DNA from: Candidatus Nomurabacteria bacterium | GTDB lineage: Bacteria > Patescibacteriota > Minisyncoccia > Phycocordibacterales > UBA9973 | Assembly: GCA_023267215.1 (NCBI GenBank) | Contig: JAHFNS010000002.1 | Location: 128,892 to 192,891, forward strand | DNA length: 64,000 bases | Direction of reading: 5' to 3' | Shown: positions 1,812-54,906 of the stretch, in pieces | How positions within the stretch are numbered: position 1 is the stretch's first letter | Layout of the letters: each line of letters begins with the position of its first letter | Notes under the pieces: model-generated | What the model was told of the DNA's origin: nothing | The model's database searches: none | The model's input: only the letters and a program-made list of their open reading frames with translations | Program-made: the position numbers and the translations under genes

Positions 1812-3005
1812 TTAACCCAATATTTTTGTGACCACTCCTGCACCTACTGTTTTACCTCCTTCGCGAATAGCAAATCTCTGCGCTTCTTCAAGGGCAACTG
1901 GAGTAACTAATTTAACTGTGATCTTTACTGTATCTCCAGGCATAACCATTTCTACTCCTTCAGCGAGAGTTACATCTCCAGTAACATCTGTCGTACGAAT
2001 ATAGAATTGAGGTTTGTAACCTTTAAAGAATGGGGTGTGACGTCCACCTTCCTCTTTTTTCAAAACATAAATCTCACAAGTAAAATTATCATGTGGAGTA
2101 ACTGTACCTGGCTTTGCAAGGACCTGTCCACGAGTAATATCTTCTTTCTTTAATCCACGAAGCAATACTCCGGCATTGTCTCCAGCCATACCTTCTTGTA
2201 AGTTTTTGTTAAACATTTCAATACCAGTAACGGTTGTTTTTTGAGTAGGTTTAATTCCAACAATTTCTACTTCCTCACCAACCTTTACTACTCCTCTTTC
2301 TATTTTACCAGTAACAACTGTTCCACGGCCTTCGATTGAAAATATATCTTCAACAGGCATAAGGAAAGGTTTGGTAACATCTCTTACTGGAATAGGAATA
2401 TAAGTATCAAGAGCATCGGTTAATTCAAGAATTTTCTTTGCCCATTCATCGTTCAAATCTTTTGCTTCAAGAGCTTTCAAGGCAGAACCTCGAATGATAG
2501 GTGCATTTACACCATCAAAGCCTTGTTTAGTTAGAAGTTCACGAATTTCTTCTTCCACTAAATCAAGCATATCTTTATCATCAACCATATCGCATTTGTT
2601 TAAGAAAACGATCATTTTTGGAACACCAACTTGTTTTGCAAGAAGAACGTGTTCACGGGTTTGTGGCATAGCACCATCTGTAGCGGCAACCACCAAAATA
2701 GCACCGTCCATCTGAGCGGCACCTGTAATCATGTTTTTAATGTAGTCAGCGTGACCTGGAGCATCAATGTGCGCATAGTGACGAGCGTCAGTAGCATATT
2801 CATTGTGTGAAATGTTAATAGTGATTCCACGAGCTTTTTCTTCTGGGGCATTGTCGATTTGGTCAACACCACGAAGTCTGACTGTTTTACCAGCCATATT
2901 AAGCACATGCAAAATTGCCGCAGTTAAGGTTGTCTTACCATGGTCAACGTGACCAATGGTGCCGACGTTAATATGCGGTTTATCTCTTTTAAATTCTTCT
3001 GCCAT
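1812..3005 (-). CDS. tuf: Elongation factor Tu
   Basis: 397 aa with [23 protein letters not shown]-motifs and full EF-Tu domain II/III similarity. Confidence 0.95.
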
Positions 3006-3118
3006 AATATTTTTTTAATAATGAGAACTCAGTGTACGAGAACCAGTCACTAAGGCCTTATTACTAACTTGTCCGCCTCTGGCGGGCTTAATTAAACTAA
3101 TAATTTTAATGCTTTTAT

Positions 3119-3151
3119 AAAAAAACCAACAGAAAAACTGCAAAAGTGCAG
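3119..3151 (-). terminator. Rho-independent terminator downstream of pyrF
   Basis: Hairpin CTGCAAAAGTGCAG (3138..3151); on the minus strand it is followed by a T-rich run (A-run 3119..3137 on +). Confidence 0.5.
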
Positions 3152-3190
3152 TTGTTAGTATAGTAGCAAATTGATAAAAAATGTCAAATC

Positions 3191-4000
3191 TTATGACAGT
3201 GCCCTATATTTTTTAATTTCTTCAAAAAGTTTTCTAGCTTCCTCTTTTGGATTATCTGCAAAAATGATACCCCTAGAAGAATTTATTATTAATCCTAATC
3301 CTTCTTTATTTAATCCTGATTCAATGACTGATTTAACATCCCCTCCTTGTGCCCCTATCCCCGGAACAAGGAAAGTCATATCAGGGACGAATGAGCGAAT
3401 CTTTTTCATTTCTTCTGGATAAGTCGCCCCAACCACTAACATACAATTATTATTTTTATTCCAAATATTTGAAACTTTTTCCGCCACAATTTGCCAAAGT
3501 TTTTTATCTTCAATTTCTAAATCTTGGAATTCTCCTGCTCCAGAATTTGAGGTCCTACAGAGAATTATAGAAGTTTTATCTTTTCTATCTAAAAAAGGTT
3601 TCAGAGCTTCCTCCCCTAAATACGGATGCAAAGTTATCGCATCAAAATTTAACCAATCAAAAGCCATATACACATAGCCATTATTAGTATTACCAATGTC
3701 CGCACGTTTCGCATCTAGGATAGTAAAAATATCTGGATATTTTTGTTGTAAATATTCCATAGTCATTTTTAACTCTTTTAGGCCTTGGTCTCCTCTAGCT
3801 TCGTAAAAAGCAATATTTGGTTTATAAGCAGCCACATATTCATTTGTTTCTTCTATAATATATTTATTAAATTCAAATTGTGGAAATTCTAATTTTAAAA
3901 ATCTTTCAGGAATTTTAGAAAAATCTGCGTCTAAACCTACGCATAAAAGTGAATTAATTTTCTTTGCTCTTTCGTTGTATTTTTCTAAACTATTCATCAT
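3191..4000 (-). CDS. pyrF: Orotidine 5'-phosphate decarboxylase (long/type 2 form)
   Basis: LCVGLDAD, DAKRADIGNT and VPGIGAQGG motifs; last gene of the pyr operon. Confidence 0.85.
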   Translation of the reverse strand: MMNSLEKYNERAKKINSLLCVGLDADFSKIPERFLKLEFPQFEFNKYIIEETNEYVAAYKPNIAFYEARGDQGLKELKMTMEYLQQKYPDIFTILDAKRADIGNTNNGYVYMAFDWLNFDAITLHPYLGEEALKPFLDRKDKTSIILCRTSNSGAGEFQDLEIEDKKLWQIVAEKVSNIWNKNNNCMLVVGATYPEEMKKIRSFVPDMTFLVPGIGAQGGDVKSVIESGLNKEGLGLIINSSRGIIFADNPKEEARKLFEEIKKYRALS

Positions 4001-4004
4001 AAAT

Positions 4005-4676
4005 TTACCTCACCCCTTTGCCCCTCTCCTTATTAAGGAGAGGGGTTGGGGAGAGGTTCTTCTCTATTAAATACTTTTTTCCATGACCAACAGTAATATT
4101 TATCGGCACACCTGCTTTACACAAAGGACAATCCTCGGCAGAATATGTCGGTATGTAAAGATCAGAAAGTGCCCCAAAAGGCACTTTAAAAATATCTATA
4201 TCCAAATCTTTATTTTTATTTACCAAAGCACAAGCTCCAATAATGTTTCCACCAGCATTTTTTACCGCTTCTATAACTTTCAAAACAGACCCACCAGTAG
4301 TGACAATATCTTCAACTATCAAAATATTTTTATTATCTTCTACATATTTTTCATATCCACGAGTAAAAATTTGTTTACCCTCAAGACTTTTTTCAGTATA
4401 TATTCCTAAAACTTCCTTACCATACATTTCACTTAAATGCCCTGCGACATATTGAGAAAGAATAATTCCACCCAAAGCAGGACCCACAACCACTTCAATA
4501 TTTTTATCTTTATATTTTTCTGCTAATATTTTACATATTTCAGAAGTTTCTTTTGTATGTGGATATAAAAAATCTTTATTTACATAAGTGTCAAAATGTA
4601 ATCCTGAAGTACCCACAAAATGCCCCTTCGGTAATATCGCTCCAACTTTATTTAAAATATCAAGAATTTCATTCAT
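4005..4676 (-). CDS. pyrE: Orotate phosphoribosyltransferase
   Basis: PRTase PRPP-binding motif ILIVEDIVTTGGS. The C-terminal 17 aa are encoded by a palindromic repeat element (see repeat copy A). Confidence 0.85.
   Translation of the reverse strand: MNEILDILNKVGAILPKGHFVGTSGLHFDTYVNKDFLYPHTKETSEICKILAEKYKDKNIEVVVGPALGGIILSQYVAGHLSEMYGKEVLGIYTEKSLEGKQIFTRGYEKYVEDNKNILIVEDIVTTGGSVLKVIEAVKNAGGNIIGACALVNKNKDLDIDIFKVPFGALSDLYIPTYSAEDCPLCKAGVPINITVGHGKKYLIEKNLSPTPLLNKERGKGVR
4007..4058. repeat. Palindromic repeat element copy A (CCTCACCCC box + CCCCTCTCCTT/AAGGAGAGGGG hairpin)
   Basis: ACCTCACCCCTTTGCCCCTCTCCTTATTAAGGAGAGGGGTTGGGGAGAGG. It overlaps the pyrE 3' coding end and supplies a GGTGAGG SD-like sequence 8 nt before the pyrF ATG. 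Confidence 0.7.
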
Positions 4677-4680
4677 AATT

Positions 4681-5766
4681 TTATATTAACTTTTCTTTTA
4701 TCTCTCTTGCAAGATATGGGTTCCACATTGCCCCCGTAGCAGACATTACGAAATCTGCTCCTGCTTTTCTGTATTCAAAAAAATCTTCTGGTGTCATCAC
4801 TCCTCCAACACCAATAATTGTAAAATTAAATCCAAATTCTTTTCTTAATTCCTTTAACCTTTTCACCATATAAAGTCCTGCCCATTTTATCGCATGTCCA
4901 CAGATTCCACTACGAAGTCTCCCCTTACCGGGTAATGCTTGGTTCCCATTTTCATCTACAACTTCTGCAGCAATGGTATTAATAGCAGATATTCCCTGCA
5001 CAATATTACCAATCTTTTTCACAAAATTCTTTAATTCCTCAATGTCAGCAAAATATCCAATTTTTATAATTAATGGAATATTTCCAATCACTTCCTTAAT
5101 AGCTTGTGCTACTAATACTGAACGATCAGTATCATAACAAAGTAAATTATTTGTACCTTCATTGGGACAACTTAAATTTACTTCCATCACTTGCACACCT
5201 GTATCTTTTAAAAACTTGGCAGTGATACGATAATCATTAATATATTCTTCTACACTCTGTCCATTTTTCTTGGTCCCTTGAAATGCACCAACTACAATTT
5301 GTCCTGATTTCGCATATTTTATTACTTCTATTAAATCTTTCTGCCAAAAAGTTGGTTCAAAAGAAGGAACTCCAAATGAATTAGTTATAGAGAAAGGTTC
5401 CTGATAATCCCTATTCGCAACTAATTTACTTTGTGCTTTTTCTATTGTTAAATCCCCATTAATTTTTACTGATAAAATATTGGGCCATAAGTGACAAGGA
5501 TATTTCTCACTTCTAACAGTTTTATAAGTAACAATATCAAAACCCTTATCAAGTGCTGCTTTTACAAAATTACCATTAATAAGCGGACCAGCTGGAATAC
5601 CAAAGGGTGAATTTATTTTAAAACCTAAAAAATCATAAAGACGGGAAGGGCTCTCCTTCCCATTCTGGGAAGAAAAGTCCTTCCCGTCAGCAAATGCACC
5701 AAAAGGTCCATTTTTTAAATTTTCTTCATAAGATTTTTCTGGATCATAAAATGGAGTGTAAAGCAT
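4681..5766 (-). CDS. pyrD: Dihydroorotate dehydrogenase (class 1-like)
   Basis: GIPAGPLING, NLSCPN and flavin-binding C-terminal motifs (GVGGV); sits between pyrB and pyrE. Confidence 0.85.
   Translation of the reverse strand: MLYTPFYDPEKSYEENLKNGPFGAFADGKDFSSQNGKESPSRLYDFLGFKINSPFGIPAGPLINGNFVKAALDKGFDIVTYKTVRSEKYPCHLWPNILSVKINGDLTIEKAQSKLVANRDYQEPFSITNSFGVPSFEPTFWQKDLIEVIKYAKSGQIVVGAFQGTKKNGQSVEEYINDYRITAKFLKDTGVQVMEVNLSCPNEGTNNLLCYDTDRSVLVAQAIKEVIGNIPLIIKIGYFADIEELKNFVKKIGNIVQGISAINTIAAEVVDENGNQALPGKGRLRSGICGHAIKWAGLYMVKRLKELRKEFGFNFTIIGVGGVMTPEDFFEYRKAGADFVMSATGAMWNPYLAREIKEKLI
5640..5688. repeat. GC-rich nested palindrome inserted in frame in the pyrD 5' region
   Basis: 10-bp inverted repeat GACGGGAAGG/CCTTCCCGTC flanking an inner CTTCCC..GGGAAG palindrome; encodes DGKDFSSQNGKESPSR in the pyrD N-terminal region. 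Confidence 0.5.
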
Positions 5767-23105: not shown

Positions 23106-23882
23106 ATGTCAGGAATTGAAAAATTTATTAAAACAAAAGAAGATTTTAAAAAATCTTATGAGGGATTAAAAAACGAATCTAGACTCATTACTTTTGATGG
23201 AGTAGATGGAGCAGGAAAAACAGAAATCTTAAAAAGAGTGATTGAAAAATTAAAAGAAAGGTTTAAAAATGAAGGGAAAAATCCAGATGATATTGTTTAT
23301 TTAAAATGCACCAGTTTGAGAGATACAAACAGTCAAAAAAATATAAGTGAAACCATTAACAAATGTAGAGATGAAAACAATTTTTGGGACAAAAATAAAA
23401 TCGACTATATTTTAAATCTCTGGTCAGCAAAATTAAATAGGTCTTATGGTGATCATATTCTTCCTTTAACTAGAAAGGGTAAAACTGTTATCCTTGATAG
23501 ATCTGAAATTGATATATTTCGGGCAGGTATAGAGTGGGGAAACAAAGAACTGGTAGATAAAATAAAAGAATATATGGAAAATGGGACATTAACCCACGGG
23601 ATAACTGCTGCTAATAGAATATTTGTCTCTAGTGAAACAAACGACGCTTATAAAAACTTAACTGAGCGATCTAAATCATTATCTAAAAATGATCCAAGAT
23701 CACTTGATGAAATGAAAAGTCGCGTTAAAAATGAAGAAGAGGCTGAAAAACTAATAGTTGAAATACAAAAAGAAAAACCAAATGTAATAAAAGTTGAAAA
23801 CAAACGAATTGAAAATGAAAAGGAAAGAAATGTGCAGTTTGAAAAAATTGCAGAAAAAATTATCAGCAATTTAAAATTATAA
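23106..23882 (+). CDS. Thymidylate kinase-like P-loop nucleotide kinase with K/E-rich C-terminal tail
   Basis: Walker A ITFDGVDGAGKT and LPLTRKGKTVILDRSEIDIFRAG, resembling the TMK LID/DR(Y/F) region; assignment to tmk versus dNK uncertain. Confidence 0.5.
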   Translation: MSGIEKFIKTKEDFKKSYEGLKNESRLITFDGVDGAGKTEILKRVIEKLKERFKNEGKNPDDIVYLKCTSLRDTNSQKNISETINKCRDENNFWDKNKIDYILNLWSAKLNRSYGDHILPLTRKGKTVILDRSEIDIFRAGIEWGNKELVDKIKEYMENGTLTHGITAANRIFVSSETNDAYKNLTERSKSLSKNDPRSLDEMKSRVKNEEEAEKLIVEIQKEKPNVIKVENKRIENEKERNVQFEKIAEKIISNLKL

Positions 23883-23899: not shown

Positions 23900-24424
23900 A
23901 TGATTCTATCTATAATAGCTGCCATTGGTAAAAATAATGAGATAGGAAAAAAGAATGAGCTTCTTTGGAATTTACCTGCGGATATGAAACATTTTAAAGA
24001 AGCAACCTCAGGCCACACAGTTATAATGGGACAAAAGACTTTTGAATCCATTGGCCATCCTCTTCCAAATAGAAGAAACATTGTTTTAACTCAAGATAAT
24101 TTATTTCAAAGAGAAGGAATAGAAATAGTCCACTCTCTAGAAGAACTTGATGCTTTGCTTAAGACCTCACCCCAACTCTCTCCAGGAAAGGAAGAAAAAG
24201 ATGAGGAGGTTTTTGTAATTGGAGGTGGACAAATATATAAATTATTTATAGATAAAGCAGATAAACTTTACATCACTCACGTCAATGCATCTTTCCCTGA
24301 CGCTGACGCATTTTTCCCAGAAATTATTCCAATAGTCTTTCTAGAAACTTCTAGAGAAGAACATAAAAAAGACGAAAAAAACGCATATGACTATGCGTTT
24401 ACTACATATACTAGATTTCAATAA
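23900..24424 (+). CDS. folA: Dihydrofolate reductase
   Basis: ILSIIAAIGKNNEIGKKNELLWNLPADMKHFKEATSGHTVIMGQKTFESIG N-terminal DHFR signature. Contains an in-frame degenerate repeat copy (24164..24200). Confidence 0.8.
   Translation: MILSIIAAIGKNNEIGKKNELLWNLPADMKHFKEATSGHTVIMGQKTFESIGHPLPNRRNIVLTQDNLFQREGIEIVHSLEELDALLKTSPQLSPGKEEKDEEVFVIGGGQIYKLFIDKADKLYITHVNASFPDADAFFPEIIPIVFLETSREEHKKDEKNAYDYAFTTYTRFQ
24164..24200. repeat. Degenerate palindromic repeat copy E inside folA (in frame)
   Basis: ACCTCACCCCAACTCTCTCCAGGAAAGGAAG encodes TSPQLSPGKEEK. The same frame and peptide theme as the RluA insert (TSPPSSPSKGEG). Confidence 0.4.
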
Positions 24425-35608: not shown

Positions 35609-36283
35609 CTAACGTTTTATAATTAATTCCTCTTCCAGAGTTTCTTTTTTTAAATTTTCTACAATTTTTTCTGCCACAAATTCTGGTTCCATATAATTTT
35701 TATAATCTACTGGTTTTGTTTTCCCAAAAAAATCTGTTTGCATGCCTGCTGGATATGCTGCAATTACAGAAATATTTTCCATACTTAAAGTCTTGCGAAG
35801 CAATTCTGTAAACCCTCGTACTGCCCACTTGCTCGATGAATAAATAGAAGAAAGAGGGCTCGGATCAAAAGCTCTTGAGGAAATTATATTTAAGATAGTT
35901 CCAAATTTTTGTTTCTTCATATATTTAATTACTGAACGAGAACCAAAAAAAGTTCCAAAAAAATTAACCTCCATAACCTCATGTGCTAAAACAGAATCAA
36001 TTTCTTCAATAGACACATGCTCCATACCAATACCAGCATTATTAATCCAAATATCTATTCTGCCAAATTGAGTAACTACTTTTTCTGCCAAACTTTGTAA
36101 TTCATTCTCTTTCGTCACATCTACCTTTATTCCTAAAATACCTTCCTCTAAATTTATGAATTCACTTTCATCTCGTGAGCAGACAATAACTTTCGAACCC
36201 TCTTTTAAAAAACAAGAAGCCATAGCTTTCCCTAAGCCCTTTGACCCTCCTGTAATAACTACTATTTTATCTTTTAGTTGCAT
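35609..36283 (-). CDS. Short-chain dehydrogenase/reductase (SDR)
   Basis: VVITGGSKGLGKA Rossmann motif, NNAG, and a YxxxK catalytic region. Confidence 0.8.
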   Translation of the reverse strand: MQLKDKIVVITGGSKGLGKAMASCFLKEGSKVIVCSRDESEFINLEEGILGIKVDVTKENELQSLAEKVVTQFGRIDIWINNAGIGMEHVSIEEIDSVLAHEVMEVNFFGTFFGSRSVIKYMKKQKFGTILNIISSRAFDPSPLSSIYSSSKWAVRGFTELLRKTLSMENISVIAAYPAGMQTDFFGKTKPVDYKNYMEPEFVAEKIVENLKKETLEEELIIKR

Positions 36284-36302
36284 AATTTGATTTTAGCATT
36301 TT

Positions 36303-37112
36303 TTAACCTCTTTGCCTGTTAATTTCAGAAACAACAATAGAGGTAGCCACGGCGACATTGAGCGAACTAGCTGAACCTTGTATTGGTATTTTGACCATAT
36401 CATCTGCCAAATCTTTATATCCAGCACTCAAACCCCATTTTTCATTTCCTGCTAAAAGAATAACGGGGGCTTTAAAATTATATTCATAGATAGAATATTT
36501 TCCATTCTCATCGGTACCAACAACTTTTAATTCTGGATATCTTATTTTCATTTCTTTTATCCAAGGCTCAAGTTCTTTTTGAGAAGGAAGCCGTACAATG
36601 GGCAGTGAGAATAAAGAGCCCGTCGTAGCACTTATTGTTTCTGGGTCATAAAGGTCCACAGCATGACCCGTAATGATTAGTCCATCAACCCCCAGAGCAT
36701 CACAAGATCGAACAATTGTCCCAAGATTGCCTGGACTTGAAGGTCTGTCAAAAACAACTATCAGTGGAATATTTTTAATTTTTATTTTATTTAAACCATC
36801 TTTAGGTATTTCCGATAGTGCAAGCAATTCAGAAGGTTCTTCTTTATTGCTTAACTTTTTTAAAAGTTCGATAGAAAGATCATAATGTGTTTCGGCCTTT
36901 GAATTCTTTAAAATATTTTTTGCCCAATCAGATAAACCTTTCTCTGATGAATAAAAGAAGGATTTGATTTCCCAATTATATTTAAGAGCATTATTTACAT
37001 TACGAACACCTTCAAAAATAAAACCTTCATGATTTCTCTTTTCTCTGTTTGTTTTCAATGCATTCAAAATCTGAAATTGTGCATTTTCTTTTCCGATTTT
37101 TACTACTTTCAT
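36303..37112 (-). CDS. SpoU/TrmH-family RNA 2'-O-methyltransferase
   Basis: PGNLGTIVRSCDALGVDGLII and SLNVAVA motifs of the SPOUT class. Confidence 0.75.
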   Translation of the reverse strand: MKVVKIGKENAQFQILNALKTNREKRNHEGFIFEGVRNVNNALKYNWEIKSFFYSSEKGLSDWAKNILKNSKAETHYDLSIELLKKLSNKEEPSELLALSEIPKDGLNKIKIKNIPLIVVFDRPSSPGNLGTIVRSCDALGVDGLIITGHAVDLYDPETISATTGSLFSLPIVRLPSQKELEPWIKEMKIRYPELKVVGTDENGKYSIYEYNFKAPVILLAGNEKWGLSAGYKDLADDMVKIPIQGSASSLNVAVATSIVVSEINRQRG

Positions 37113-37138
37113 AAAATTTAAATAAACATTACCTCAAG

Positions 37139-37223
37139 TGCGCGGGAGAGGATTCGAACCTCCATGCCCTTGCGGGCGCTACCACCTCAAGGTAGTACGT
37201 CTGACCAGTTTCGCCACCCGCGC
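37139..37223 (-). tRNA. tRNA-Leu (anticodon GAG), class II with long variable arm
   Basis: Hand fold: acceptor GCGCGGG/CCCGCGC, anticodon stem CTACC/GGTAG, loop TTGAGGT, variable-arm hairpin GCCC-GCAA-GGGC, T-arm GGAGG-TTCGAAT-CCTCT. No encoded CCA. Confidence 0.8.
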
Positions 37224-37224
37224 A

Positions 37225-37905
37225 TTATTTTGTCAAATATTTCCTTTGTTGTTTCTTTTCTATCTCTAAAGCTCTTTGTATTTTGAGCTTCTTTCTTGAT
37301 AAACAAACAACTTTCTGATTATAGTACATTTTCTTTATTACTTCCATCGCTTCTTTTTTGCCATATTTCAACTGAAAAGTACGTCCCCTGCCGTCTTTCC
37401 CAATATGACCAAAAACACCAACTCTACTTTCTAATTCTTCTCTTAGCCAATCAATATGTTTTTTACTCGCAGAAACAAATTCTAAATAAAACATATGACT
37501 TGAACGCCACCTTGGATCCCAATATGAATAAAAACATCCATCTCCGTCAAAACACCCCCTTAAAAAATCAAAAAAATATTTACTAGGAATTTTTAACTTT
37601 CCCATTGTCAATGACTTTTTAGGAGTTAAACCAATAGACAAAAGAAAATCATAAAATATTCTATTCTTAAATTGAATCCTCAAACATTCATCCCCTTTTA
37701 AATTCCATTTATTTCCTATCTTAAAGTTTACCCCTACACACTTGGAAAAATTTAGTAATTGCTCCCTGTCCTTCGAGGTTAAATCGACTAGCAGGCCATC
37801 ACTTGATAAACATCCATCTGTAGCAATTAAACCTATTGCATAGGCTAAATTCCCATTCCAGGTTTCATTTATAATTCTTTTTGGTTCTGGTCCTCTCTTC
37901 CCCAT
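37225..37905 (-). CDS. LAGLIDADG homing endonuclease (double-motif), free-standing, abutting tRNA-Leu
   Basis: Two dodecapeptide motifs: LAYAIGLIATDGCL and FLRGCFDGDGCF. The stop codon is 1 nt from the tRNA 5' end. Confidence 0.75.
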   Translation of the reverse strand: MGKRGPEPKRIINETWNGNLAYAIGLIATDGCLSSDGLLVDLTSKDREQLLNFSKCVGVNFKIGNKWNLKGDECLRIQFKNRIFYDFLLSIGLTPKKSLTMGKLKIPSKYFFDFLRGCFDGDGCFYSYWDPRWRSSHMFYLEFVSASKKHIDWLREELESRVGVFGHIGKDGRGRTFQLKYGKKEAMEVIKKMYYNQKVVCLSRKKLKIQRALEIEKKQQRKYLTK

Positions 37906-37954
37906 ATGAATATTATATCACCTCAAGTACATAGCGTCTACTAATTATTACCAA

Positions 37955-37986
37955 CATAAAAATCCACCGAGAGAGTGGATTTTTAT
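37955..37986. terminator. Bidirectional terminator hairpin (rplS side)
   Basis: ATCCAC-CGAGAGA-GTGGAT flanked by an A-run and a T-run. Confidence 0.55.
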
Positions 37987-38007
37987 GTTTTGCTTTTTAT
38001 AATTTTT

Positions 38008-38409
38008 TTATTTTTCTGTTTTTTCCACTTCTACCTCCTCGTCAGCAACTGAGACAACAGAACGTAATTTTCGGCGGACATCTTTTACTGCTTTAACTCG
38101 TACATAATATAGTTTTGATTTACGAGCTCGAGATTTCTTAGTTATTTCAATTTTATCAACAGCTGGAGAATAAAGTGGAAAGATTCTTTCTACGCCTACA
38201 CCTGAAGCTATTCTGCGAACGGTGAAAGTCGCACCGATTTCTGTACCATGTTTGCGAGCAAGAACGATACCTTCAAAAGCCTGCAGACGTGTCTTCCCTT
38301 TTTCATCTAAGACTTTGGACCAAACACGAATAGTATCTCCTGAATTGAAATCAAGCTTCCCTCTGTCTTCAACATTTACTGAAGTAAGTTTTGTTTTATC
38401 TATTTTCAT
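38008..38409 (-). CDS. rplS: 50S ribosomal protein L19 with C-terminal extension
   Basis: SGDTIRV...RLQAFEGIV...GVERIFPLYSP core. The ORF track extends to a TTG at 38448, but the MKIDKTK Met at 38409 fits the L19 N-terminus. Confidence 0.85.
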   Translation of the reverse strand: MKIDKTKLTSVNVEDRGKLDFNSGDTIRVWSKVLDEKGKTRLQAFEGIVLARKHGTEIGATFTVRRIASGVGVERIFPLYSPAVDKIEITKKSRARKSKLYYVRVKAVKDVRRKLRSVVSVADEEVEVEKTEK

Positions 38410-38452
38410 AACAGTTTTTAATCTAACATAAACCAATTCTAAAGGCAAATTA

Positions 38453-38496
38453 ACTCACCTCACCCCTAAGCCCCTCTCCTTGTAAAGTAGAGGGGT
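38453..38496. repeat. Palindromic repeat element copy B (intergenic)
   Basis: ACTCACCTCACCCCTAAGCCCCTCTCCTTGTAAAGTAGAGGGGT. Confidence 0.65.
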
Positions 38497-38504
38497 ATTA
38501 AAGA

Positions 38505-40208
38505 CTAGGCAAATTCCTGTTGATAGCATTTCACACAATAAACTATCTCTGGTCCATCTGGGGCATAAGGTGTATAAATGTTTATATTACATTTTGCACA
38601 GGTTCTATGATACATTTTAGGTTTTGTCATTCTCTCAAATCTTTCATTTTCTCTGCATTTAGGACATTCATGTGGGACTGGTAAATTCATCTTACGAAGT
38701 AAATCTAATTCTCCTTTTACTATTTTGTATCCATTTTTACATTTTTCACATTCAATTATCTCATCCAAAACTTTTTCATCTATATCTTTTATTGTATCTG
38801 GCAAAGAATCTGTTTTCTTTGTAGTTTTATAAATTGTGCCTTCTCTGTCTTCCCAAAAATAACCCTCTTCTAAAACTTCTCCCTTTGTTTTTGGAAAAAA
38901 TTTAATTGCATTTGATTTATTGTATGGGAACTTACTAAATTCCGGTGGAAAAAATTCTCCATAGTAAAATTTCCGTCCAAGCTTGTCTATGTATGGATTC
39001 TTTTTCATATCTTCAATAATTTTATCTCTGAGTTTTTCATATTCCTCTTTTGTATACTCTTTATTTAAAATACAGTATTTTTTTCTTTTTAAATTTACAC
39101 AACCAAAATTATTTTTACCAGTGATATTCCATGAACAGTATTGCAAATCCAAACTCTCTGACCAACAATAATTGGAGAATAATATTAGATTGGTGCCCTC
39201 TCCTACTCCCGTACTTTCATAAATTTGGCTTACATTGTTTCCCCAACCAGAATAATCCCAGCAATCTTTAGCTGACGGGACAGTAATAAATTGAGTCCAT
39301 TTACAATCTTCGGCACCACCAACCATATAAACTTCCTTTGAATTTTTAGAACTGTAAACATCTTCACCTGTCACATTTAAATTTTTTGAGTTTCCATTAT
39401 ACTCTCTATATGGCAAGGTATTCCAAAACTCATGTACTTTCTCTTTAAGAGACTGTAACGACATCCAAGAATCAAGTTTCAACTCTTTGACTTTTTCTTG
39501 ATATTCTTCTTTTGTGTACTTAATATTAAAAATATAATAAGAAGCACCTCGCAGATTTACACATCCAATACAATTAGTGCAACTTGAACAATTGCGAGAA
39601 AACCATACATTCACACAATCACGACATTCATATGAGAAAAAAGTTTGATAACTTTTATTAACCCCAACACATTCATAACATAATTCTGAATAAAACCCTC
39701 GTAAACAATCTAAACTCGATTTTAGATTATTTAATAATGAGGAATAGTAGACATTCTCACAATAATCTGCCCAAAAAGTTAAATAGCAATCTTTAGACCA
39801 CCCTATACCATTAGAATATTCGGAATTCTTTATAGTTAAATGATCTGCTTCAAGAAGAGCAAAAGGAGTTTTATCAAAAAGTTTTTTTAATTGTTCTAAA
39901 AAGGGTTTGCTTGGATCATAATCCATTGCGTATTCTGTCCCATCCCAACTATCTCCCCACCAACAAGTCGGGCAATAACCTATCACTTCTTTATCTGGTG
40001 GATAAACAGAAACAGATCTAGCTCCACATTTATCACAATTGCGCCAATATAGATTCCAAGTATTCTGAAAAGAGATACGTCTAATAAATCGACATTCCGG
40101 ACACCAAGTCGGAGGAGGCACCTTCATTTTTTCATAAAAATTAAAATCCTCCGGCTCAATTGTGAAGTCTTGCTTACAGTTCTGGCAATTTCTAACTTCA
40201 GTTTGCAT
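38505..40208 (-). CDS. Cysteine-rich protein with multiple CxxC zinc-ribbon-like motifs and an internal duplicated module
   Basis: 567 aa. There are 4 CxxC pairs at each terminus and two internal repeats ending ..C.NL(R/K)...Y.I.N..YTKEEY(Q/E)K. Function unknown. Confidence 0.5.
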   Translation of the reverse strand: MQTEVRNCQNCKQDFTIEPEDFNFYEKMKVPPPTWCPECRFIRRISFQNTWNLYWRNCDKCGARSVSVYPPDKEVIGYCPTCWWGDSWDGTEYAMDYDPSKPFLEQLKKLFDKTPFALLEADHLTIKNSEYSNGIGWSKDCYLTFWADYCENVYYSSLLNNLKSSLDCLRGFYSELCYECVGVNKSYQTFFSYECRDCVNVWFSRNCSSCTNCIGCVNLRGASYYIFNIKYTKEEYQEKVKELKLDSWMSLQSLKEKVHEFWNTLPYREYNGNSKNLNVTGEDVYSSKNSKEVYMVGGAEDCKWTQFITVPSAKDCWDYSGWGNNVSQIYESTGVGEGTNLILFSNYCWSESLDLQYCSWNITGKNNFGCVNLKRKKYCILNKEYTKEEYEKLRDKIIEDMKKNPYIDKLGRKFYYGEFFPPEFSKFPYNKSNAIKFFPKTKGEVLEEGYFWEDREGTIYKTTKKTDSLPDTIKDIDEKVLDEIIECEKCKNGYKIVKGELDLLRKMNLPVPHECPKCRENERFERMTKPKMYHRTCAKCNINIYTPYAPDGPEIVYCVKCYQQEFA

Positions 40209-40212
40209 AGTA

Positions 40213-40965
40213 TTATTTTAACACCTCTATAAACTCTTTGGGTAGTGGTGATTCAACTTTTATTATTTTTCCTTTCAAATCTTTAAAGACAATAGATTTA
40301 GCATGTAGGGCCAATCTATCTATACCTTTAGGAGAGGGGTGCCCTCCATTATAAAGTGAATCACAAACTACTGGATGATTTATAAATTTCATATGCACTC
40401 GAATCTGATGTGTACGACCCGTTTTCGGACGCACTTCTAAATAAGTAAATTTAGCCCCCTCTCCTTTAGAAGGAGAGGACGGGGGTGAGGTAAATCTTTT
40501 CAAAACAGTATATTCAGTGATAGCTTCTCGAAGTTCCCCTCTCGCCCCACGTCCTGCTAACCTTTTACGAAAATCATTTCCACTTCGTCCAATTGGTTTT
40601 CTTATAGTTCCTCTATCATTTTTCATAGAACCTAAAACAATTGCATTATAAACTTTTTTTATTTCTCTTCCTTTAAATTGTTCTTTCAAAAATTCATAAG
40701 CTTTTTGATTCTTTGCTAAAAGTAAAACACCAGAAGTATCTTTATCTAGGCGATGTACTATACCTGGACGAGGAAGAAGCTCAAAAAATTTATCGTCATT
40801 TTTTATCTTAATTGGTTCTCCAACATTTTTTGTTTTAGGATAATTTTTTAAAAACCAATCAGAAATTGTTTTTTCTTTACTTCTACCATCTGGATGCACC
40901 GAAACACCAGAGGGTTTATCTATGGCTAAAATATTCGAATCTTCATAAAGTATTTTAATTTTCAT
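40213..40965 (-). CDS. RluA-family pseudouridine synthase carrying an in-frame repeat insertion
   Basis: NILAIDKPSGVSVHP and HRLDKDTSGVLLLAKN catalytic motifs; TGRTHQIRVH. A 14-aa TSPPSSPSKGEGAK segment is encoded by repeat copy D. Confidence 0.8.
   Translation of the reverse strand: MKIKILYEDSNILAIDKPSGVSVHPDGRSKEKTISDWFLKNYPKTKNVGEPIKIKNDDKFFELLPRPGIVHRLDKDTSGVLLLAKNQKAYEFLKEQFKGREIKKVYNAIVLGSMKNDRGTIRKPIGRSGNDFRKRLAGRGARGELREAITEYTVLKRFTSPPSSPSKGEGAKFTYLEVRPKTGRTHQIRVHMKFINHPVVCDSLYNGGHPSPKGIDRLALHAKSIVFKDLKGKIIKVESPLPKEFIEVLK
40453..40494. repeat. Palindromic repeat element copy D (reverse orientation, in frame inside the RluA-family gene)
   Basis: GCCCCCTCTCCTTTAGAAGGAGAGGACGGGGGTGAGGTAAAT is the reverse complement of the family consensus. 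Confidence 0.65.
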
Positions 40966-41705
40966 ATAATTAATTCTTTAAGTCTTTCCATCCAACCTAA
41001 AATCGTAAGAAATAATTTGGTATCATTAACTGACACATCTAATGTACCATATGGTAAAGTATTTCTCTTGTTTTTACTAGCGTTGCTTCTTTTTATATAT
41101 GTTTTATAAAATTGATTTATTGGAATCTGTGATACTTCAGACCAATATTTTTCAGAATTTTTCACATTGGTTTGAGAAAATGTATGTATATGACCACGAA
41201 ATTTTTCTTCTGGGACCAAACATATTTCTCTAAAAAATTTCATTATAATTTTAATTATATCTGGGTCGCTGTTTGTAAGACGTGCAATTCCTCTTTTTGT
41301 TTTTCCTCCTTCACCTAAATATAGAGCAATCCCTATCATTTTTAAGTCATTTTGAGAGATATTACTAATTTCTTTTTTAGCACCATTAATAATGAGATCA
41401 CTTCTCTTTTTTGTATTTGCAATTCGACTTACTCTTCTTTTTTCAATAGAGTTTACACTACGTCCATTCTGAGATAACAAACTTTTTTGTTTTTCATTTA
41501 GAACAACATCTCGTACCCATAAACTTACACTTGCTTTTGATACATTAAGAACATTTTTTATTTCATTTATAGATTTTCCTTGTCTACGTAAAATTATAGC
41601 TCTCCTTTTTTCATTAACTTTCATATATAGAGTATACCGTATGTATAGTATTATATCAAGGTTTAATAAAGAAACTATTGAAATAAACCCGAAAATACTA
41701 TACAC
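40962..41705 (-). CDS. Putative HTH plus LAGLIDADG-like endonuclease
   Basis: N-terminal HTH (RRQGKSINEIKNVLNVSKASVSLWVRDV); central MIGIALYLGEGG...DPDIIKIIMKFF resembles a single LAGLIDADG motif. Flanked by tRNA-Val and tRNA-Arg. Confidence 0.45.
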   Translation of the reverse strand: MYSIFGFISIVSLLNLDIILYIRYTLYMKVNEKRRAIILRRQGKSINEIKNVLNVSKASVSLWVRDVVLNEKQKSLLSQNGRSVNSIEKRRVSRIANTKKRSDLIINGAKKEISNISQNDLKMIGIALYLGEGGKTKRGIARLTNSDPDIIKIIMKFFREICLVPEEKFRGHIHTFSQTNVKNSEKYWSEVSQIPINQFYKTYIKRSNASKNKRNTLPYGTLDVSVNDTKLFLTILGWMERLKELII

Positions 41706-41722
41706 TTCCCTTGTGTGTATCT

Positions 41723-41798
41723 GCGCGCTTAGCTCAGTTGGTAGAGCAACTCATTTACACTGAGAAGGTCGGGGGTTCGAGTCCCTCAGCGCGCACCA
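41723..41798 (+). tRNA. tRNA-Val (anticodon TAC), CCA encoded
   Basis: Acceptor GCGCGCT/AGCGCGC, D-arm GCTC-AGTTGGTA-GAGC, anticodon loop TTTACAC, T-arm GGGGG-TTCGAGT-CCCTC, then ACCA. Confidence 0.8.
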
Positions 41799-41799
41799 G

Positions 41800-41871
41800 G
41801 CCTTCGTAGTTCAATGGATAGAACGAAAGGTTTCTAACCTTTTAATGTAGGTCCGATTCCTACCGAAGGCA
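41800..41871 (+). tRNA. tRNA-Arg (anticodon TCT)
   Basis: Acceptor GCCTTCG/CGAAGGC, anticodon stem AAAGG/CCTTT, loop TTTCTAA, T-arm GTAGG-TCCGATT-CCTAC. Starts 1 nt after tRNA-Val. Confidence 0.75.
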
Positions 41872-41875
41872 CATT

Positions 41876-42547
41876 TTATTTAAATCTCTCAAGAGCGATT
41901 GCAATAGCTCCTGCATATTTGAAAGATTCCTCACGGGTCATTTCAGGAATATCTTTACTTGTATCTAAAATATTTGTCCAAACATTAGCTAATTCTACTT
42001 TTGTTTTCAAACCTAAAGAAAAATATTCAGCTAATTTTTCCAAATTATCATTATCACCACATAAAATTATTTTTTTAATTGGAGGTTTTATTTTTGTCTC
42101 TATATCTTTATATGTATGCCAATATATAAAATGTTTCATTAATGCATCACGCAAATCTGGAATTTCTACTCCTCTTATATTTAAAATAATTGAAGACATT
42201 ACAATATTATTAGAAACAATAAAAACTCCAACACTTTTATTTCCTAAATCTACAATCATATATGTCTCTTTATCCCCTCTTTTTATTAAAACATTCGCAA
42301 TAGTCTCTGCTTTATGTTCTATCGACGAAAAAGTATAAACAGACTCCACTTTAAATTCTTTTTTAAAAGAATTTAAAGTTTCTTTCATCTTTTCTTTATC
42401 TCCTTCCAAAATCCCTTCTTCAATTTTTTTTTCTCCATAACGATTCACCTTAAAACTATTTCCTATTTTAATAAGTTCTATAAATTTAATAGATTCATCT
42501 CCAATATCTGCTCCATGAGAAATTGATTTAAATAAATTTTTAAACAT
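41876..42547 (-). CDS. PilM-like (actin-fold) type IV pilus assembly protein, short form
   Basis: N-terminal ADIGDESIKFIEL and C-terminal YAGAIAIALERF resemble the PilM termini. It is shorter than canonical PilM. Confidence 0.4.
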   Translation of the reverse strand: MFKNLFKSISHGADIGDESIKFIELIKIGNSFKVNRYGEKKIEEGILEGDKEKMKETLNSFKKEFKVESVYTFSSIEHKAETIANVLIKRGDKETYMIVDLGNKSVGVFIVSNNIVMSSIILNIRGVEIPDLRDALMKHFIYWHTYKDIETKIKPPIKKIILCGDNDNLEKLAEYFSLGLKTKVELANVWTNILDTSKDIPEMTREESFKYAGAIAIALERFK

Positions 42548-42562
42548 TGAAATATTATAACA

Positions 42563-42895
42563 CTATCTTGCTCTTGTCCCGACAGTAACATCATTATTTG
42601 GTTCTAAAAGAGAAAATTTTCCATCTTCAGTTGAAACAGCTAATATCATTCCCTGACTCTCTATTCCACGAATTGTTTTCGGCTCTAAATTGGCAATAAA
42701 CATACATTTTTTGCCAACTAATACAGTATAATCCGGAAAATATAAGGAGATACCTGAAACTATTTGTCTCGAAGTCTCTTCTCCTAGGTCAACAGACAAT
42801 TTTAGTAATTTGTCAGTATCCGGAACTTTCTCTGCCGATAAAATTTTCCCAACGACAATATCTATTTTTTTAAAATCTTCTAATGTAATTATCAT
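42563..42895 (-). CDS. tRNA-binding domain protein (CsaA/Trbp111/EMAP-like)
   Basis: 110 aa; an IVVGKILSAEKVPDTDKLLKLSVDLGEE..RQIVSGI OB-fold signature. Confidence 0.7.
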   Translation of the reverse strand: MIITLEDFKKIDIVVGKILSAEKVPDTDKLLKLSVDLGEETSRQIVSGISLYFPDYTVLVGKKCMFIANLEPKTIRGIESQGMILAVSTEDGKFSLLEPNNDVTVGTRAR

Positions 42896-43329
42896 TTGTT
42901 TATTTTATCTAAATATCTTTGTAATATCAAAGCAGCCGCAGAAGCATCTATCCTTCCACTTTTGATTTGTTTCACCTTACTATGCACCTGAGACTGATTT
43001 AAACTTTTTTTAGTGTCAGTTCCCTTGCGAGCTTCAACAGATGTTAAAAATTCTTTTTCTTTATGAACTGGTAAATTAAATTTTTCTTTAAGTTCTGAAA
43101 TAAAGACCTCAATCCTTGCAGACAATGTATTTAATTTTCCAGAAAAATCTACTGATTCTCCTATCACTATTTGGGTAACATTTTCTGTTTTTATTATTTC
43201 TTTAAGCCTATCAAAAGTATCCACATTATTAAGTATGATTTCCTTTGGGAAAGCTAAAACACCATCTTCGTCTGAAATAGCTACACCTATCCTCTTTGTC
43301 CCGTAATCTATACCCAAAAATCTTTTCAT
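42892..43329 (-). CDS. ruvX: Holliday-junction resolvase-like protein YqgF/RuvX
   Basis: LGIDYGTKRIGVAISD N-terminal motif. Confidence 0.8.
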   Translation of the reverse strand: MKRFLGIDYGTKRIGVAISDEDGVLAFPKEIILNNVDTFDRLKEIIKTENVTQIVIGESVDFSGKLNTLSARIEVFISELKEKFNLPVHKEKEFLTSVEARKGTDTKKSLNQSQVHSKVKQIKSGRIDASAAALILQRYLDKINK

Positions 43330-43375
43330 ATTTAAGATATTAGCACAAAAATTTTACTTCTGGTATAATATAAAA

Positions 43376-43645
43376 ATGATGGATCAATTTTATACACAAT
43401 CGTTTTTTCCTATTAATAATAACTGGGCAATTCTTGGTTTTATAGTATTAGGTCTTTGGATCTTGTTTTGGAAAGGTTGTTCGTTGTGGATAGCTACTAA
43501 AAATGACAAGAAGTTGTGGTTTGCGATACTTCTTATTTTTAATACTATTGGTATTTTAGAAATTATCTTCATTTTCTTTGTTGCAAAAAAGAAATGGAGT
43601 GACATAAAAGAAATATTTTCTAAAACAAAACAAACTGAATTATAA
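43376..43645 (+). CDS. Small membrane protein (2 TM), hypothetical
   Basis: 89-aa ORF with two hydrophobic helices, followed by a strong terminator. Confidence 0.4.
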   Translation: MMDQFYTQSFFPINNNWAILGFIVLGLWILFWKGCSLWIATKNDKKLWFAILLIFNTIGILEIIFIFFVAKKKWSDIKEIFSKTKQTEL

Positions 43646-43670
43646 TTTTTAATTAAAAAACATTATTTAA

Positions 43671-43708
43671 AATACCCAGCTACTAGCGAGTAGCTGGGTA
43701 TTTTATTT
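43671..43708 (+). terminator. Rho-independent terminator (14-bp stem)
   Basis: AATACCCAGCTACT-AGCG-AGTAGCTGGGTATT followed by TTATTTTA. Confidence 0.6.
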
Positions 43709-43727
43709 TAAAGATTTAAATATTTAT

Positions 43728-44252
43728 TTGTGGTATACTAGATTAGTGGAACAGTATGAAAGAAATCCAAATACTTTTTGCATTATCTGTAAAAAAGCAA
43801 TTTACAGAAAACCAAGCCAAATAAAAAGAAATAAAAGTGGAGTTTTTTGTAGTATGGATTGCTATGGCATTAGTCAAAGAAAAGAAAAACCATGTATAGT
43901 TTGTGGAAAAATGATCATGTCAAAATTTAACAAAAAGACTTGTAGCAGAAGTTGTGCAAATATACATAGAGCTGGAATAAAATATAAGATTGGAAGTCCA
44001 CGAAGTAAAGTAAAATCTCAACAAGCTGTAAAGATAAAGCTGCTTAAAGAAAGAGGAAAAAAATGTGAAAAATGTGATTATAATAAATATGAGATATTAC
44101 AAGTTCATCATAAAGATAGAAATAAAAATCATAATGATTTAGAAAATCTTGAATTAATTTGTCCAAACTGTCATTATGAAGAACATTTCTTAAAAAAGAG
44201 TTGGTTGAGAAATAAGATTGAAAAAGAAGAAAAAAAGGATATACTAGATTAA
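43728..44252 (+). CDS. HNH endonuclease with N-terminal Cys-rich zinc-ribbon region
   Basis: CEKCDYNKYEILQVHHKDRNKNHNDLENLELICPNCH is an HNH motif; several CxxC pairs lie upstream. It ends 14 nt before tRNA-Ser. Confidence 0.65.
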   Translation: MWYTRLVEQYERNPNTFCIICKKAIYRKPSQIKRNKSGVFCSMDCYGISQRKEKPCIVCGKMIMSKFNKKTCSRSCANIHRAGIKYKIGSPRSKVKSQQAVKIKLLKERGKKCEKCDYNKYEILQVHHKDRNKNHNDLENLELICPNCHYEEHFLKKSWLRNKIEKEEKKDILD

Positions 44253-44266
44253 CTAACAAAAAACAA

Positions 44267-44349
44267 GGAGGGTTGCGCCGAATGGTAAGGCACTTGTCTT
44301 GAAAACAAGCGGGCGAAAGCCCTTAGAGGTTCGAGTCCTCTACCCTCCG
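44267..44349 (+). tRNA. tRNA-Ser (anticodon TGA), class II
   Basis: Acceptor GGAGGGT/ACCCTCC, anticodon stem CTTGT/ACAAG, loop CTTGAAA, variable-arm hairpin GGGC-GAAA-GCCC, T-arm AGAGG-TTCGAGT-CCTCT. Confidence 0.75.
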
Positions 44350-44374
44350 CAGGAAAAACTTGTTATCGGCAGAC

Positions 44375-44394
44375 CCACAGTCATATGACTGTGG
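44375..44394. promoter_or_regulatory. 20-nt perfect palindrome upstream of the 44449 gene
   Basis: CCACAGTCATATGACTGTGG, about 55 nt upstream of the start codon; candidate operator. Confidence 0.35.
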
Positions 44395-44448
44395 TGCGAC
44401 CCGACGGCATGATTACCTAAAAGAGTAATTTTAAGCTAAAATAAGAAT

Positions 44449-45414
44449 ATGGAAGGACAAAATTTTGGGTTAAAAAGCAATAATTTAGACTTAGAAAAAT
44501 CTTCGGCTCAGAATGATTTAGACTCTTTGCTAAGAGAAAAAGGTGTTGAAAATGTTCCTAAAATTGAAACCAATTTCTTTTTTCATAAACACTCAACAGC
44601 AGAAGACGGACAAGCGGTGGGTGAACGTCTAAAAAATGCAGATATTCTTATTCAGGAAAACGCTGGTTGGGATTCTGCTCGACTTGATATTTTCAACGAC
44701 GTATCGAATGGTATCCTGACCCCTGAACAAGCGATGGATATGGAAAAGCATAATGGAAAGCCATTTTTGTGGAAAGACTTCTATGCTTCGTTACTCGACG
44801 GTTTGTATAAATCAGACAAGAGAGTAATGCTTGTGGACGTTCCGAATGATAATGTTGTCTTTAAAAACCTTATGGGCCTATATGCGTCCAATGGTGCCTA
44901 CAATAACCTCATTAACAAGTCCTTACCTTACGAGGAAGCGCTAAGGAGAATTGGTAATGTCTCAAAATTTGAATCTGACATGCAGAAGGCTCGCGAAGAT
45001 TATATTTTAGAAAAACTTCCAGAAGCTCTAGCTGAAACATTGAAGCAGAATCCTGATCTCCAGAAAAAAGAAAACTTGAAAATACTTTTCTCAATGGGAG
45101 GTTTTCACACTCGCCTATATCACGAGATGAAAAAATTAGGGAATGATGTAAGTCGAGAATTCTCAAACATGCCATACAGTTTTGATCCTCGAATGTCTGC
45201 TGAGCGCAGTATTCATTTCAAGGGAATGGAGGAGTCAAAATATTTGTTGCCTAAAATAGCCCTCTATCTTATCCTAAAGAAAGAGCTACCAAACCTAGAG
45301 ATAACACATGACGTTATATCTGTTTTCTCGGATGAGGAAATTAAAAGCCTTTATGAAAAATACCAGACAGCTTCTTCGGAAGAGTTTAAAGAATACTTCG
45401 AGTCGATATTATAG
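44449..45414 (+). CDS. Hypothetical protein (locally GC-elevated gene)
   Basis: 321-aa ORF with no recognisable motifs; its base composition is visibly more GC-rich than its neighbours. Confidence 0.5.
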   Translation: MEGQNFGLKSNNLDLEKSSAQNDLDSLLREKGVENVPKIETNFFFHKHSTAEDGQAVGERLKNADILIQENAGWDSARLDIFNDVSNGILTPEQAMDMEKHNGKPFLWKDFYASLLDGLYKSDKRVMLVDVPNDNVVFKNLMGLYASNGAYNNLINKSLPYEEALRRIGNVSKFESDMQKAREDYILEKLPEALAETLKQNPDLQKKENLKILFSMGGFHTRLYHEMKKLGNDVSREFSNMPYSFDPRMSAERSIHFKGMEESKYLLPKIALYLILKKELPNLEITHDVISVFSDEEIKSLYEKYQTASSEEFKEYFESIL

Positions 45415-45475
45415 ACTCCGACCCACATGCCTCGCACTGGAAATAATATCTTAATAATTTTGATATAATATAAAT

Positions 45476-46909: not shown

Positions 46910-47051
46910 ATGTAATTTTTTTATTAATAATTTACAGAATACGACATAATCTGTATATAGATGTATACGTCTTGTAAAAATGAAATGGTGCATTAAATTT
47001 AATACCTATTTTAGATAGACTTAAAATAACTGTGGGGGTATAATTGTATTA

Positions 47052-47519: not shown

Positions 47520-47567
47520 TTATTGAAAAGTGGATTTTTAAACTTAAAATTGTTAATCTAACAATAT

Positions 47568-47639: not shown

Positions 47640-47665
47640 CAAGAATTTATGCTACACTTGTTATT

Positions 47666-50657: not shown

Positions 50658-50661
50658 ACAT

Positions 50662-54728: not shown

Positions 54729-54767
54729 TCACCTCACCCCTACCCCTCTCCTTAATAAGGAGAGGGG
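54729..54767. repeat. Palindromic repeat element copy C (intergenic)
   Basis: TCACCTCACCCCTACCCCTCTCCTTAATAAGGAGAGGGG, immediately after the 54280 gene stop. Confidence 0.65.
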
Positions 54768-54906
54768 TTTTGTCTTCTGTAATAATTTTATTTTTAACAC
54801 GTCAACACTAAAGGATGATAGTCCATACCTTGACTTTATTGGTAAAGGTGATATACTACAAGTTAACAAATCTGTACAAAAATTGAAAACTAAATAGAGG
54901 TATAAA

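Follow-up and report, generated by a model that had tools for sequence, protein, structure and literature searches.

What kind of sequence are twelve codons in the folA gene of a Candidatus Nomurabacteria genome (Patescibacteria/CPR, ~33% GC) that resemble a short repeat found elsewhere in the same DNA: an ordinary part of DHFR, a repeat that is still at work as nucleic acid, or the remains of a repeat that has become protein sequence? We approached this question within a window, by which we mean the whole 64-kb stretch of DNA that was analysed. The two features at issue are the following.

23900..24424, plus strand: folA (DHFR) ORF of 174 aa, matching PF00186 (DHFR_1) with E 2.7e-57
24164..24199, plus strand: segment of 12 codons (36 bases, TSPQLSPGKEEK) in frame in folA, a probable decayed copy of a triplex-type repeat

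The segment consists of the codons ACC TCA CCC CAA CTC TCT CCA GGA AAG GAA GAA AAA, read as TSPQLSPGKEEK, and makes up codons and residues 89-100 of DHFR. An earlier sequence-only reading of this DNA had given its sequence, its in-frame position and its translation correctly, with ACC beginning at 24164, while the end that it gave, 24200, has to be moved to 24199, where the repeat-derived part stops; 24200 is the first base of the next codon. The same reading had taken the segment to be an insertion, and the DHFR alignments bear this out. Solved DHFRs from the PDB show an alignment gap of ~11 residues opposite TSPQLSPGKEE, and a TSPQ(P/L)SP... segment occurs in only seven of the 120 closest homologues, window protein included, and is absent from 113. 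Broad sharing of the segment among DHFR homologues, which the reading had named as contrary to its claim, is thus not what the comparison shows. The nearest relatives (77-83% identity) have a short loop at this place, either ...LLKKTSxPEEE... (165-167 aa) or ...LLDKDTE... (161 aa). That the short 'KKTSxP' loop might itself be a still older, partly deleted remnant was considered and found unsupported, with no residual profile similarity and no GC excess (loop-minus-gene GC of such DHFR loops averages -0.03).

In the AF2 model of the protein, which has a mean pLDDT of 90.3, the insert lies between a helix (residues 80-89) and a strand (103-107), running from the last helix residues through the joining loop, and residues 91-100 are the lowest block of the protein (pLDDT 63). 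As modelled, the insert forms a surface loop of low confidence in a DHFR that is otherwise predicted confidently, and it is placed away from the catalytic core. The joint between this helix and strand we take to be the alphaE-betaE connection of established DHFR nomenclature, in the adenosine-binding subdomain and away from the active site. Other, unrelated short inserts are found in the same loop of other homologues, namely ESIRQAQ-type inserts in P0002, P0008, P0039, P0059 and P0076 (in P0002 as an extra ESIRQAQ within a 'KKTSTPE' background), ..GHS.. inserts in P0037, P0056 and P0114, and further inserts in P0045, P0103 and L077. The DHFR alphaE-betaE loop is thus either a hot spot for insertions or a site that tolerates them.

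Outside folA, the window holds four intact copies of the repeat.

4007..4057, no strand assigned: E1, a full double copy and nested palindrome, ACCTCACCCC..CCCCTCTCCTT-ATT-AAGGAGAGGGG..GGGGAGAGGT, recognised by hairpin, profile and triplex rule
38457..38495, plus strand: E2, an intergenic copy between rplS (38008-38448, minus strand) and a 567-aa zinc-finger ORF, with one stem mismatch
40213..40965, minus strand: RluA-family pseudouridine synthase ORF carrying E3
40455..40491, minus strand: E3, an intact in-frame copy in the RluA gene (TSPPSSPSKGEGA), recognised by hairpin, profile and the DNA of homologues
54731..54768, plus strand: E4, a copy beginning 5 bases 3' of the stop of ORF 54280-54726, followed by TTTTGTCTT

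All four are built of a box, a spacer of 2-4 nt and then a hairpin, CCCCTCTCCTT-loop-AAGGAGAGGGG (on the other strand CCCCTCTCC-loop-GGAGAGGGG). In the folA copy the box ACCTCACCCC is exact (10/10), seven of the eight bases of the left arm CTCTCTCC are kept, and the right arm is worn down to GGAAGAAAA. The window has five exact occurrences of the 10-mer ACCTCACCCC, one in folA and one in each of the four intact copies (at 4007, 38457, 40491 on the minus strand, and 54731). With at most one mismatch allowed the count rises to seven; shuffles give 1.07 +/- 1.08, and not one of 100 has as many as seven. An nhmmer profile built on 102 metagenome copies, none of them from the window or from DHFR genes, returned E4 (E 8e-8), E3 (6e-7), E1 (2e-5), the folA copy (7.6e-4; 16.2 bits) and E2 (8.5e-4), and the first match beyond the repeat copies and their weaker reverse-strand hairpin echoes had E = 0.43, at 40329-40339. 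This last stretch, CCCCTCTCCTA, was tried as a second decayed RluA copy and rejected, as it encodes the conserved HPSPKG block and the homologues are equal in length.

With 16 bits and no structure, the folA segment is identified as a repeat copy largely by its 10-nt box and by positional homology with intact copies elsewhere. In five of the six other DHFR carriers the DNA shows the copy intact, at a codon position and with a length identical to those in the window, reading ACC TCA CCC CA(A/G) CCC TCT CCT nnn nAA G(G/T)A GAG GGn, and in all carrier DNAs compared the repeat stands 3' of LL[K/R/Q] and 5' of EE. The box is read as Thr-Ser-Pro both in folA and in RluA, in the same frame, as the DNA of the RluA copy confirms. 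The proposal that the folA segment and the RluA insert are the same element thus held up on two counts, the intact copies at the identical DHFR codon and the shared frame of the RluA copy.

The BoxC/PIT motif, a G/C-rich sequence capable of intrastrand triplexes, was reportedly treated in earlier papers by Bergler in 1992 and by Hoyne and Maher in 2000 and 2002, and to our knowledge the origin and function of BoxC/PIT/TM-type repeats have been open since the 1990s. In E. coli the TM_ECO (BoxC, PIT) motif is CCCTCNCCC-N3-6-GGGNGAGGG-N3-GGGNGAGGG, for example CCCTCTCCCTGAGGGAGAGGGTTAGGGTGAGGGG (Holder et al. 2015, PMC4666352); it has no promoter or terminator activity, marks unstable loci, and formed a triplex in vitro, none being detectable in vivo (PMC4666352). 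The reverse complement of the window repeat, CCCCTCTCC-loop-GGAGAGGGG-N2-4-GGGG(T/A)GAGG, follows the same plan of a C-block, a loop, a complementary G-block, a short loop and a second G-block mirroring the first, in nearly the same letters (CCCTCTCCC-GGGAGAGGG-GGGTGAGGG in E. coli, CCCCTCTCC-GGAGAGGGG-GGGGTGAGG in the window), and both are multi-copy and dispersed, often in inverted pairs, across phyla. Given this mirror third-block design, the box ACCTCACCCC corresponds to the complementary strand of the third, triplex-forming block. The two differ in setting, since the E. coli motif is always intergenic (PMC4666352), whereas window copies lie in frame in folA and RluA and E1 ends pyrE, and the window host has a Patescibacteria genome of 33% GC.

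Two rules were applied to the copies. Watson-Crick pairing of the C-rich block with the first G-rich block (9-nt stems, at most one mismatch) gave 9/9 pairs in both halves of E1 and in E4, 8/9 in E2 and E3, and 5/9 in the folA copy. The triad rule, by which the second G-rich block mirrors the first in purine-motif triads (G*G, A*A or T*A), gave 9/9 in E1, E2 and E4, 8/9 in E3, 7/9 in the folA remnant and 9/9 in the E. coli controls; E1 and E4 pass both tests with 9/9 each, like the E. coli TM_ECO controls. A sequence-independent finder that looks for a hairpin with a mirror third block picked out both halves of E1 together with E2, E3 and E4 and no other site in the window; 20 shuffles gave no match. 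Neither strand of the window contains the literal TM_ECO pattern, the register being shifted by one base and the loops differing (2-7 nt). Judged by these comparisons, the window repeat is a variant of the BoxC/PIT/TM_ECO motif and not TM_ECO sensu stricto, and the folA copy a decayed member of the triplex motif and not an active one, with blocks 2 and 3 kept (GGAGAGAGTTGGGGTGAGG, 17/19 identical to E. coli TM blocks 2-3) and block 1 lost. When metagenome contigs were scanned with the pattern ACCTCACCCC N0-6 CCTCTCC, the repeat was found in at least 120 public contigs with GC contents from 31% to 71%, and the complementary arm GGAGAGGG, although absent from the search pattern, lay 3' of the pattern in 112 of the 130 matches listed.

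The window is rich in copies, with six half-units in its 64 kb; three (L035, L042) were found in ~1.1 Mb of related-genome loci fetched for other reasons, loci selected for inserts being left out. Three of the five window loci overlap coding sequence, two of them (folA and RluA) in frame inside enzymes. The third is E1, which on the minus strand provides a pyrE-like ORF (4005-4676, minus strand) with its final 17 residues (NLSPTPLLNKERGKGVR) and its stop codon, in a frame that differs from that of folA and RluA and yields the peptide NLSPTPLL..RGKGVR*; E1 fills the entire gap between this ORF and the next (3191-4000, minus strand). Other frames are also used in metagenome ORFs (PSP..GEG.GVRS and PLS..RRG.GGEV), and in low-GC metagenome contigs the repeat occurs inside long ORFs that match Pfam families well, among them those for the type I restriction R subunit, UvrD, QueG, FecR and MetH. 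The pure-pyrimidine and pure-purine blocks hold almost no stop codons, which makes read-through possible.

In RluA, ten of 120 homologues have TSPQPSPYKGEG-type inserts, all at one hairpin turn, which in most homologues, the nearest ones included, is a short EDKKN or ENKKI and in whose place E3 stands, and the carriers are scattered over the tree. Their DNA has the same repeat in the same frame, with about five codons of the empty allele (4-5 residues) replaced, which a plain cut-and-paste model does not predict; the folA repeat possibly also replaces loop residues rather than just adding to them. The ATTT motifs flanking the RluA site are present in the empty allele too, and by inspection no target-site duplication flanks any copy in the window. 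In related bacteria the RluA turn carries at least two further families of longer, palindrome-like in-frame inserts, likewise scattered over the tree (P0165 and P0179 with EAPISKNFSSCALPRVRGGTLGEKNFQKSSLA; P0155, P0172 and P0184 with TLPAPSLRREGN...KGEG). We found no paper on such inserts in Patescibacteria.

Several observations concern the surroundings of the other copies. The 567-aa ORF beside E2 (38505-40208, minus strand) is cysteine-rich, has a weak treble-clef zinc-finger match and lies between RluA and rplS, an order that recurs in L209 and L210 with an ORF of 566-578 aa. E4 is the sole match to a terminator consensus among the copies in a scan of 36000-55900, with no match for E2 or E3 there nor for E1 in a scan of 3000-5000; E4 with TTTTGTCTT (54742-54768) is the top terminator-like site of the 20-kb scan and lies directly after ORF 54280-54726, and this copy may have been recruited to serve as a terminator. 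A search of the window with Rfam gave five tRNAs above threshold and no match on the repeats. Beside tRNA genes stand two free-standing minus-strand ORFs, 37225-37905 with a LAGLIDADG_3 match (tRNA gene 37139-37223) and 40962-41705 with no Pfam match (tRNA gene or genes 41723-41871), which may be homing-endonuclease-type genes.

The neighbourhood of folA itself has features of its own. Between thyA and folA lies a 258-aa P-loop ORF (23106-23882, plus strand) with a weak thymidylate-kinase match below the Pfam threshold, and since in the relatives L001 and L003 thyA and folA stand side by side with 3-4 nt between them, this ORF looks like a lineage-specific addition to the nucleotide-metabolism cluster, which continues downstream with MazG-like, NT5C and F420-ligase-like genes. 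In the folA neighbourhood of L003 (14204-15633) a reverse transcriptase gene (RVT_1) stands beside a bAvd gene, a pairing that marks a diversity-generating retroelement; the part of the window that corresponds to this region has no such pair.

How far the folA copy has decayed can be read from its intact counterparts. Against the intact DHFR consensus the window copy shows CCC>CTC, CCT>CCA and GGA GAG GGA>GAA GAA AAA, which destroys the hairpin, mostly through G-to-A and C-to-T changes. Of the six changes in the stem, five are GC-to-AT transitions, as fits an AT-rich genome. Folded as single-stranded DNA, the folA copy reaches -3.3 kcal/mol (z +0.98), no better than shuffles, while the intact copies range from -7.3 to -19.3 kcal/mol with z from -2.4 to -6.4 (E1: -19.3, z -6.4). 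The hairpin is lost, and the bases just 3' of the segment hold no T run. The description of the segment as degenerate at the nucleotide level was therefore right, the check for a hairpin remnant by folding having given the values just quoted, and the suggestion that it is retained as a peptide was right for the length of the loop, though not for the motif, whose residues have drifted (P>L, GEG>EEK). A downstream candidate for a right outer arm (GGGGTGAGGT), namely GATGAGGAGGT (GAT GAG GAG GT), was dismissed, as it is the conserved DHFR 'DEEV' block (D/E-E-E-V/N codons), also present in insert-free homologues.

The age of the insertion is approached through divergence and phylogeny. Among the five intact DHFR copies nucleotide identity is 89% within the repeat vs 72% outside it, and identity at third positions of identical codons is 87.5% in the repeat (91/104) vs 60% elsewhere (649/1080). 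Identity as high as this means that the intact intragenic copies arose later than their genes, have been homogenised or are under nucleotide-level constraint. The window copy has 69-75% nucleotide identity to the intact DHFR copies vs 69-70% for the rest of the gene, a gene-like divergence that fits long neutral decay, and it makes an older insertion, as the sequence-only reading had proposed, plausible while falling short of proof. In a weakly resolved NJ tree of DHFR the carriers stand in three places and the window protein among non-carriers, so that a single old insertion needs several losses and an independent insertion needs fast decay; the tree is compatible with either one old insertion and several losses or several independent insertions. 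The data show that the folA segment is an insert, that it belongs to this repeat family, that its hairpin has gone and that it falls in a surface loop modelled with low confidence; its present neutrality, its route of insertion and its age are what we infer.

In all likelihood, folA 24164-24199 is a molecular fossil, an in-frame BoxC/PIT/TM-type half-unit whose structure has decayed and which is kept as a 12-residue surface loop. A half-unit of ~36 nt of a dispersed GC-rich repeat would have entered the codons of the DHFR alphaE-betaE surface loop, keeping the reading frame and lying in sense orientation. It would have consisted of the box ACCTCACCCC, a spacer of 2-4 nt and a hairpin CCC(C)TCTCC-loop-GGAGAGGG(G), its length, a multiple of three, making it translatable, and frame 0 would have given the Pro/Ser/Gly/Glu-rich peptide TSPQPSPxKGEG, which a surface loop could tolerate. 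In the window lineage the nucleic-acid structure would no longer be maintained, and mutation biased towards AT, for the most part G>A and C>T, would have erased the right arm of the hairpin while the 12-codon length was kept. The segment most likely has no present function.

Other accounts of the segment have to be set against these data. The retention of blocks 2 and 3 in much of their length (7/9 triads) would suit a nucleic-acid element that still works, its mirror repeat CCTCACCCC-AA-CTCTCTCC (antisense GGAGAGAG-TT-GGGGTGAGG) acting as H-DNA, as a triplex or protein target, or as a recombination, replication or mRNA pause site, and the conserved third positions of the intact DHFR copies (87.5% vs 60%) may point to constraint on those copies, or just to their youth. 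Yet the Watson-Crick arm of the window copy is gone (5/9 pairs), its folding is at the level of shuffles, its divergence from the other copies has kept pace with that of the rest of the gene, and the E. coli motif itself is without a stable in vivo triplex, promoter or terminator activity (PMC4666352), all of which makes a working element improbable. A peptide module such as a linker or modification site, in which TSPQxSP...(GEG) would be selected at the protein level in DHFR and RluA and the likeness in DNA would be secondary, could account for a frame and orientation that two unrelated enzymes share, also across many lineages, and for the kept length of the window copy. It does not sit well with identical DNA in intergenic positions and in other frames (pyrE, metagenome ORFs), with conserved positions that are the synonymous ones, with the lack of the loop in most close DHFR homologues or with the drift of the motif residues in the window, and we hold it to be very improbable.

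The shortness of the folA copy, of which only the box and 7/8 of an arm remain, leaves room for a chance resemblance, that is, an ordinary lineage-specific loop expansion that contains the 10-mer. The statistics of the exact box, the E of 7.6e-4 from a profile of independent copies and the intact copies in six homologues at the same codon and of the same length together effectively refute it; we give it next to no credence.

A decayed repeat kept as loop residues has parallels elsewhere. Rickettsia palindromic elements (RPE) lie in frame in genes (Ogata et al. 2000 Science 290:347; 2002 Genome Res; both as summarised in PMC10969869), and they are likewise palindromic repeats in frame in unrelated housekeeping genes, as the folA and RluA repeats are, translated as fold-compatible extra surface peptides that are absent from orthologues and decay with time. 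They differ in being ~100-150 bp long and Rickettsia-specific, whereas the window unit is 36-51 bp and has a motif of many phyla, a separation made on description, and RPEs are not reported to be triplex-type mirror repeats. REP/RAYT systems are also short, GC-rich, dispersed and non-autonomous hairpin repeats, and the candidate partner considered below, DUF559, is flanked by inverted repeat copies as RAYT genes are by REPs; unlike a RAYT, this candidate enzyme has a PD-(D/E)XK Vsr-like fold and not a Y1 transposase fold, and the ends of the window copies carry no GTAG/CGTC tag. Correia and ERIC elements are bacterial MITEs of the kind that fuse with ORFs. Another is the Coxiella QMITE (PMC5896051). 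Like these, the window repeat is small and non-autonomous and sometimes lands in genes to create in-frame fusions, but its unit is much shorter, it has no target-site duplication, and terminal inverted repeats are present in E1 only.

What could spread such a repeat is suggested by its company in other genomes. Of the 120 contigs listed in the scan, picked by the repeat pattern alone, seven contain a coding segment for DUF559 (PF04480, Vsr-like PD-(D/E)XK), and in six of the seven (L119, L103, L105, L147, L160, L174) it directly adjoins the repeat, often with inverted pairs; in L119 (3424-7683, minus strand) a complete DUF559 domain with inverted flanking repeats lies in frame in the activation domain of a 1420-aa MetH ORF. 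Conversely, when 120 DUF559 homologues were collected by protein similarity alone, ~15 of them had a repeat-type peptide at one terminus, as with TSPPGPLSKGEGE and LPSPSGEGPGVR. Of three DUF559 loci chosen blind, L212 and L213 have triplex-type repeats on both sides, and in L214 the finder detects a repeat just after the stop, with a box and hairpin separated by a long spacer readable ~50 bp upstream; the repeat letters differ between these taxa and the hairpin-plus-mirror design is kept. In E. coli K-12, TM_ECO no. 9 lies ~170 bp beyond ycjD, the DUF559 gene of that strain (NC_000913 1351204-1351760, L211). The Vsr/DUF559 clan includes a homing endonuclease (PMC3424549). By tblastn at E <= 1e-3 there is no DUF559 in the window, and we found no paper linking DUF559 or ycjD with BoxC or these repeats.

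The link between repeat and DUF559 is an association only, in a small sample, and it hints at a REP/RAYT-like partnership. Because DUF559 genes elsewhere are flanked by such repeats, a DUF559 (Vsr-like) endonuclease acting in trans is a likely but unproven source of repeat mobility. Going further, we offer as a tentative idea that BoxC/PIT/TM repeats might be non-autonomous partners of DUF559, in the manner of REP/RAYT, that have repeatedly colonised permissive surface loops of essential enzymes (folA, rluA and the end of pyrE) in AT-rich, small-genome Patescibacteria, with intact copies kept at the nucleotide level or re-inserted and abandoned ones decaying into loop residues.

Taken alone, the folA segment is most likely a neutral scar, and it provides a clean, datable case of a selfish or structure-forming repeat turned into protein sequence in an essential enzyme. 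The association with DUF559, if true, would offer a testable answer to the question of what spreads these repeats. As different repeat families occur in the same two loops, the DHFR alphaE-betaE loop and the RluA turn, in many lineages, these loops also provide a natural map of insertion-tolerant sites. For the BoxC/PIT/TM family, described as strictly intergenic in E. coli, the finding widens the known behaviour, in that its members here act like the protein-coding palindromes of Rickettsia, and do so in the Candidate Phyla Radiation.
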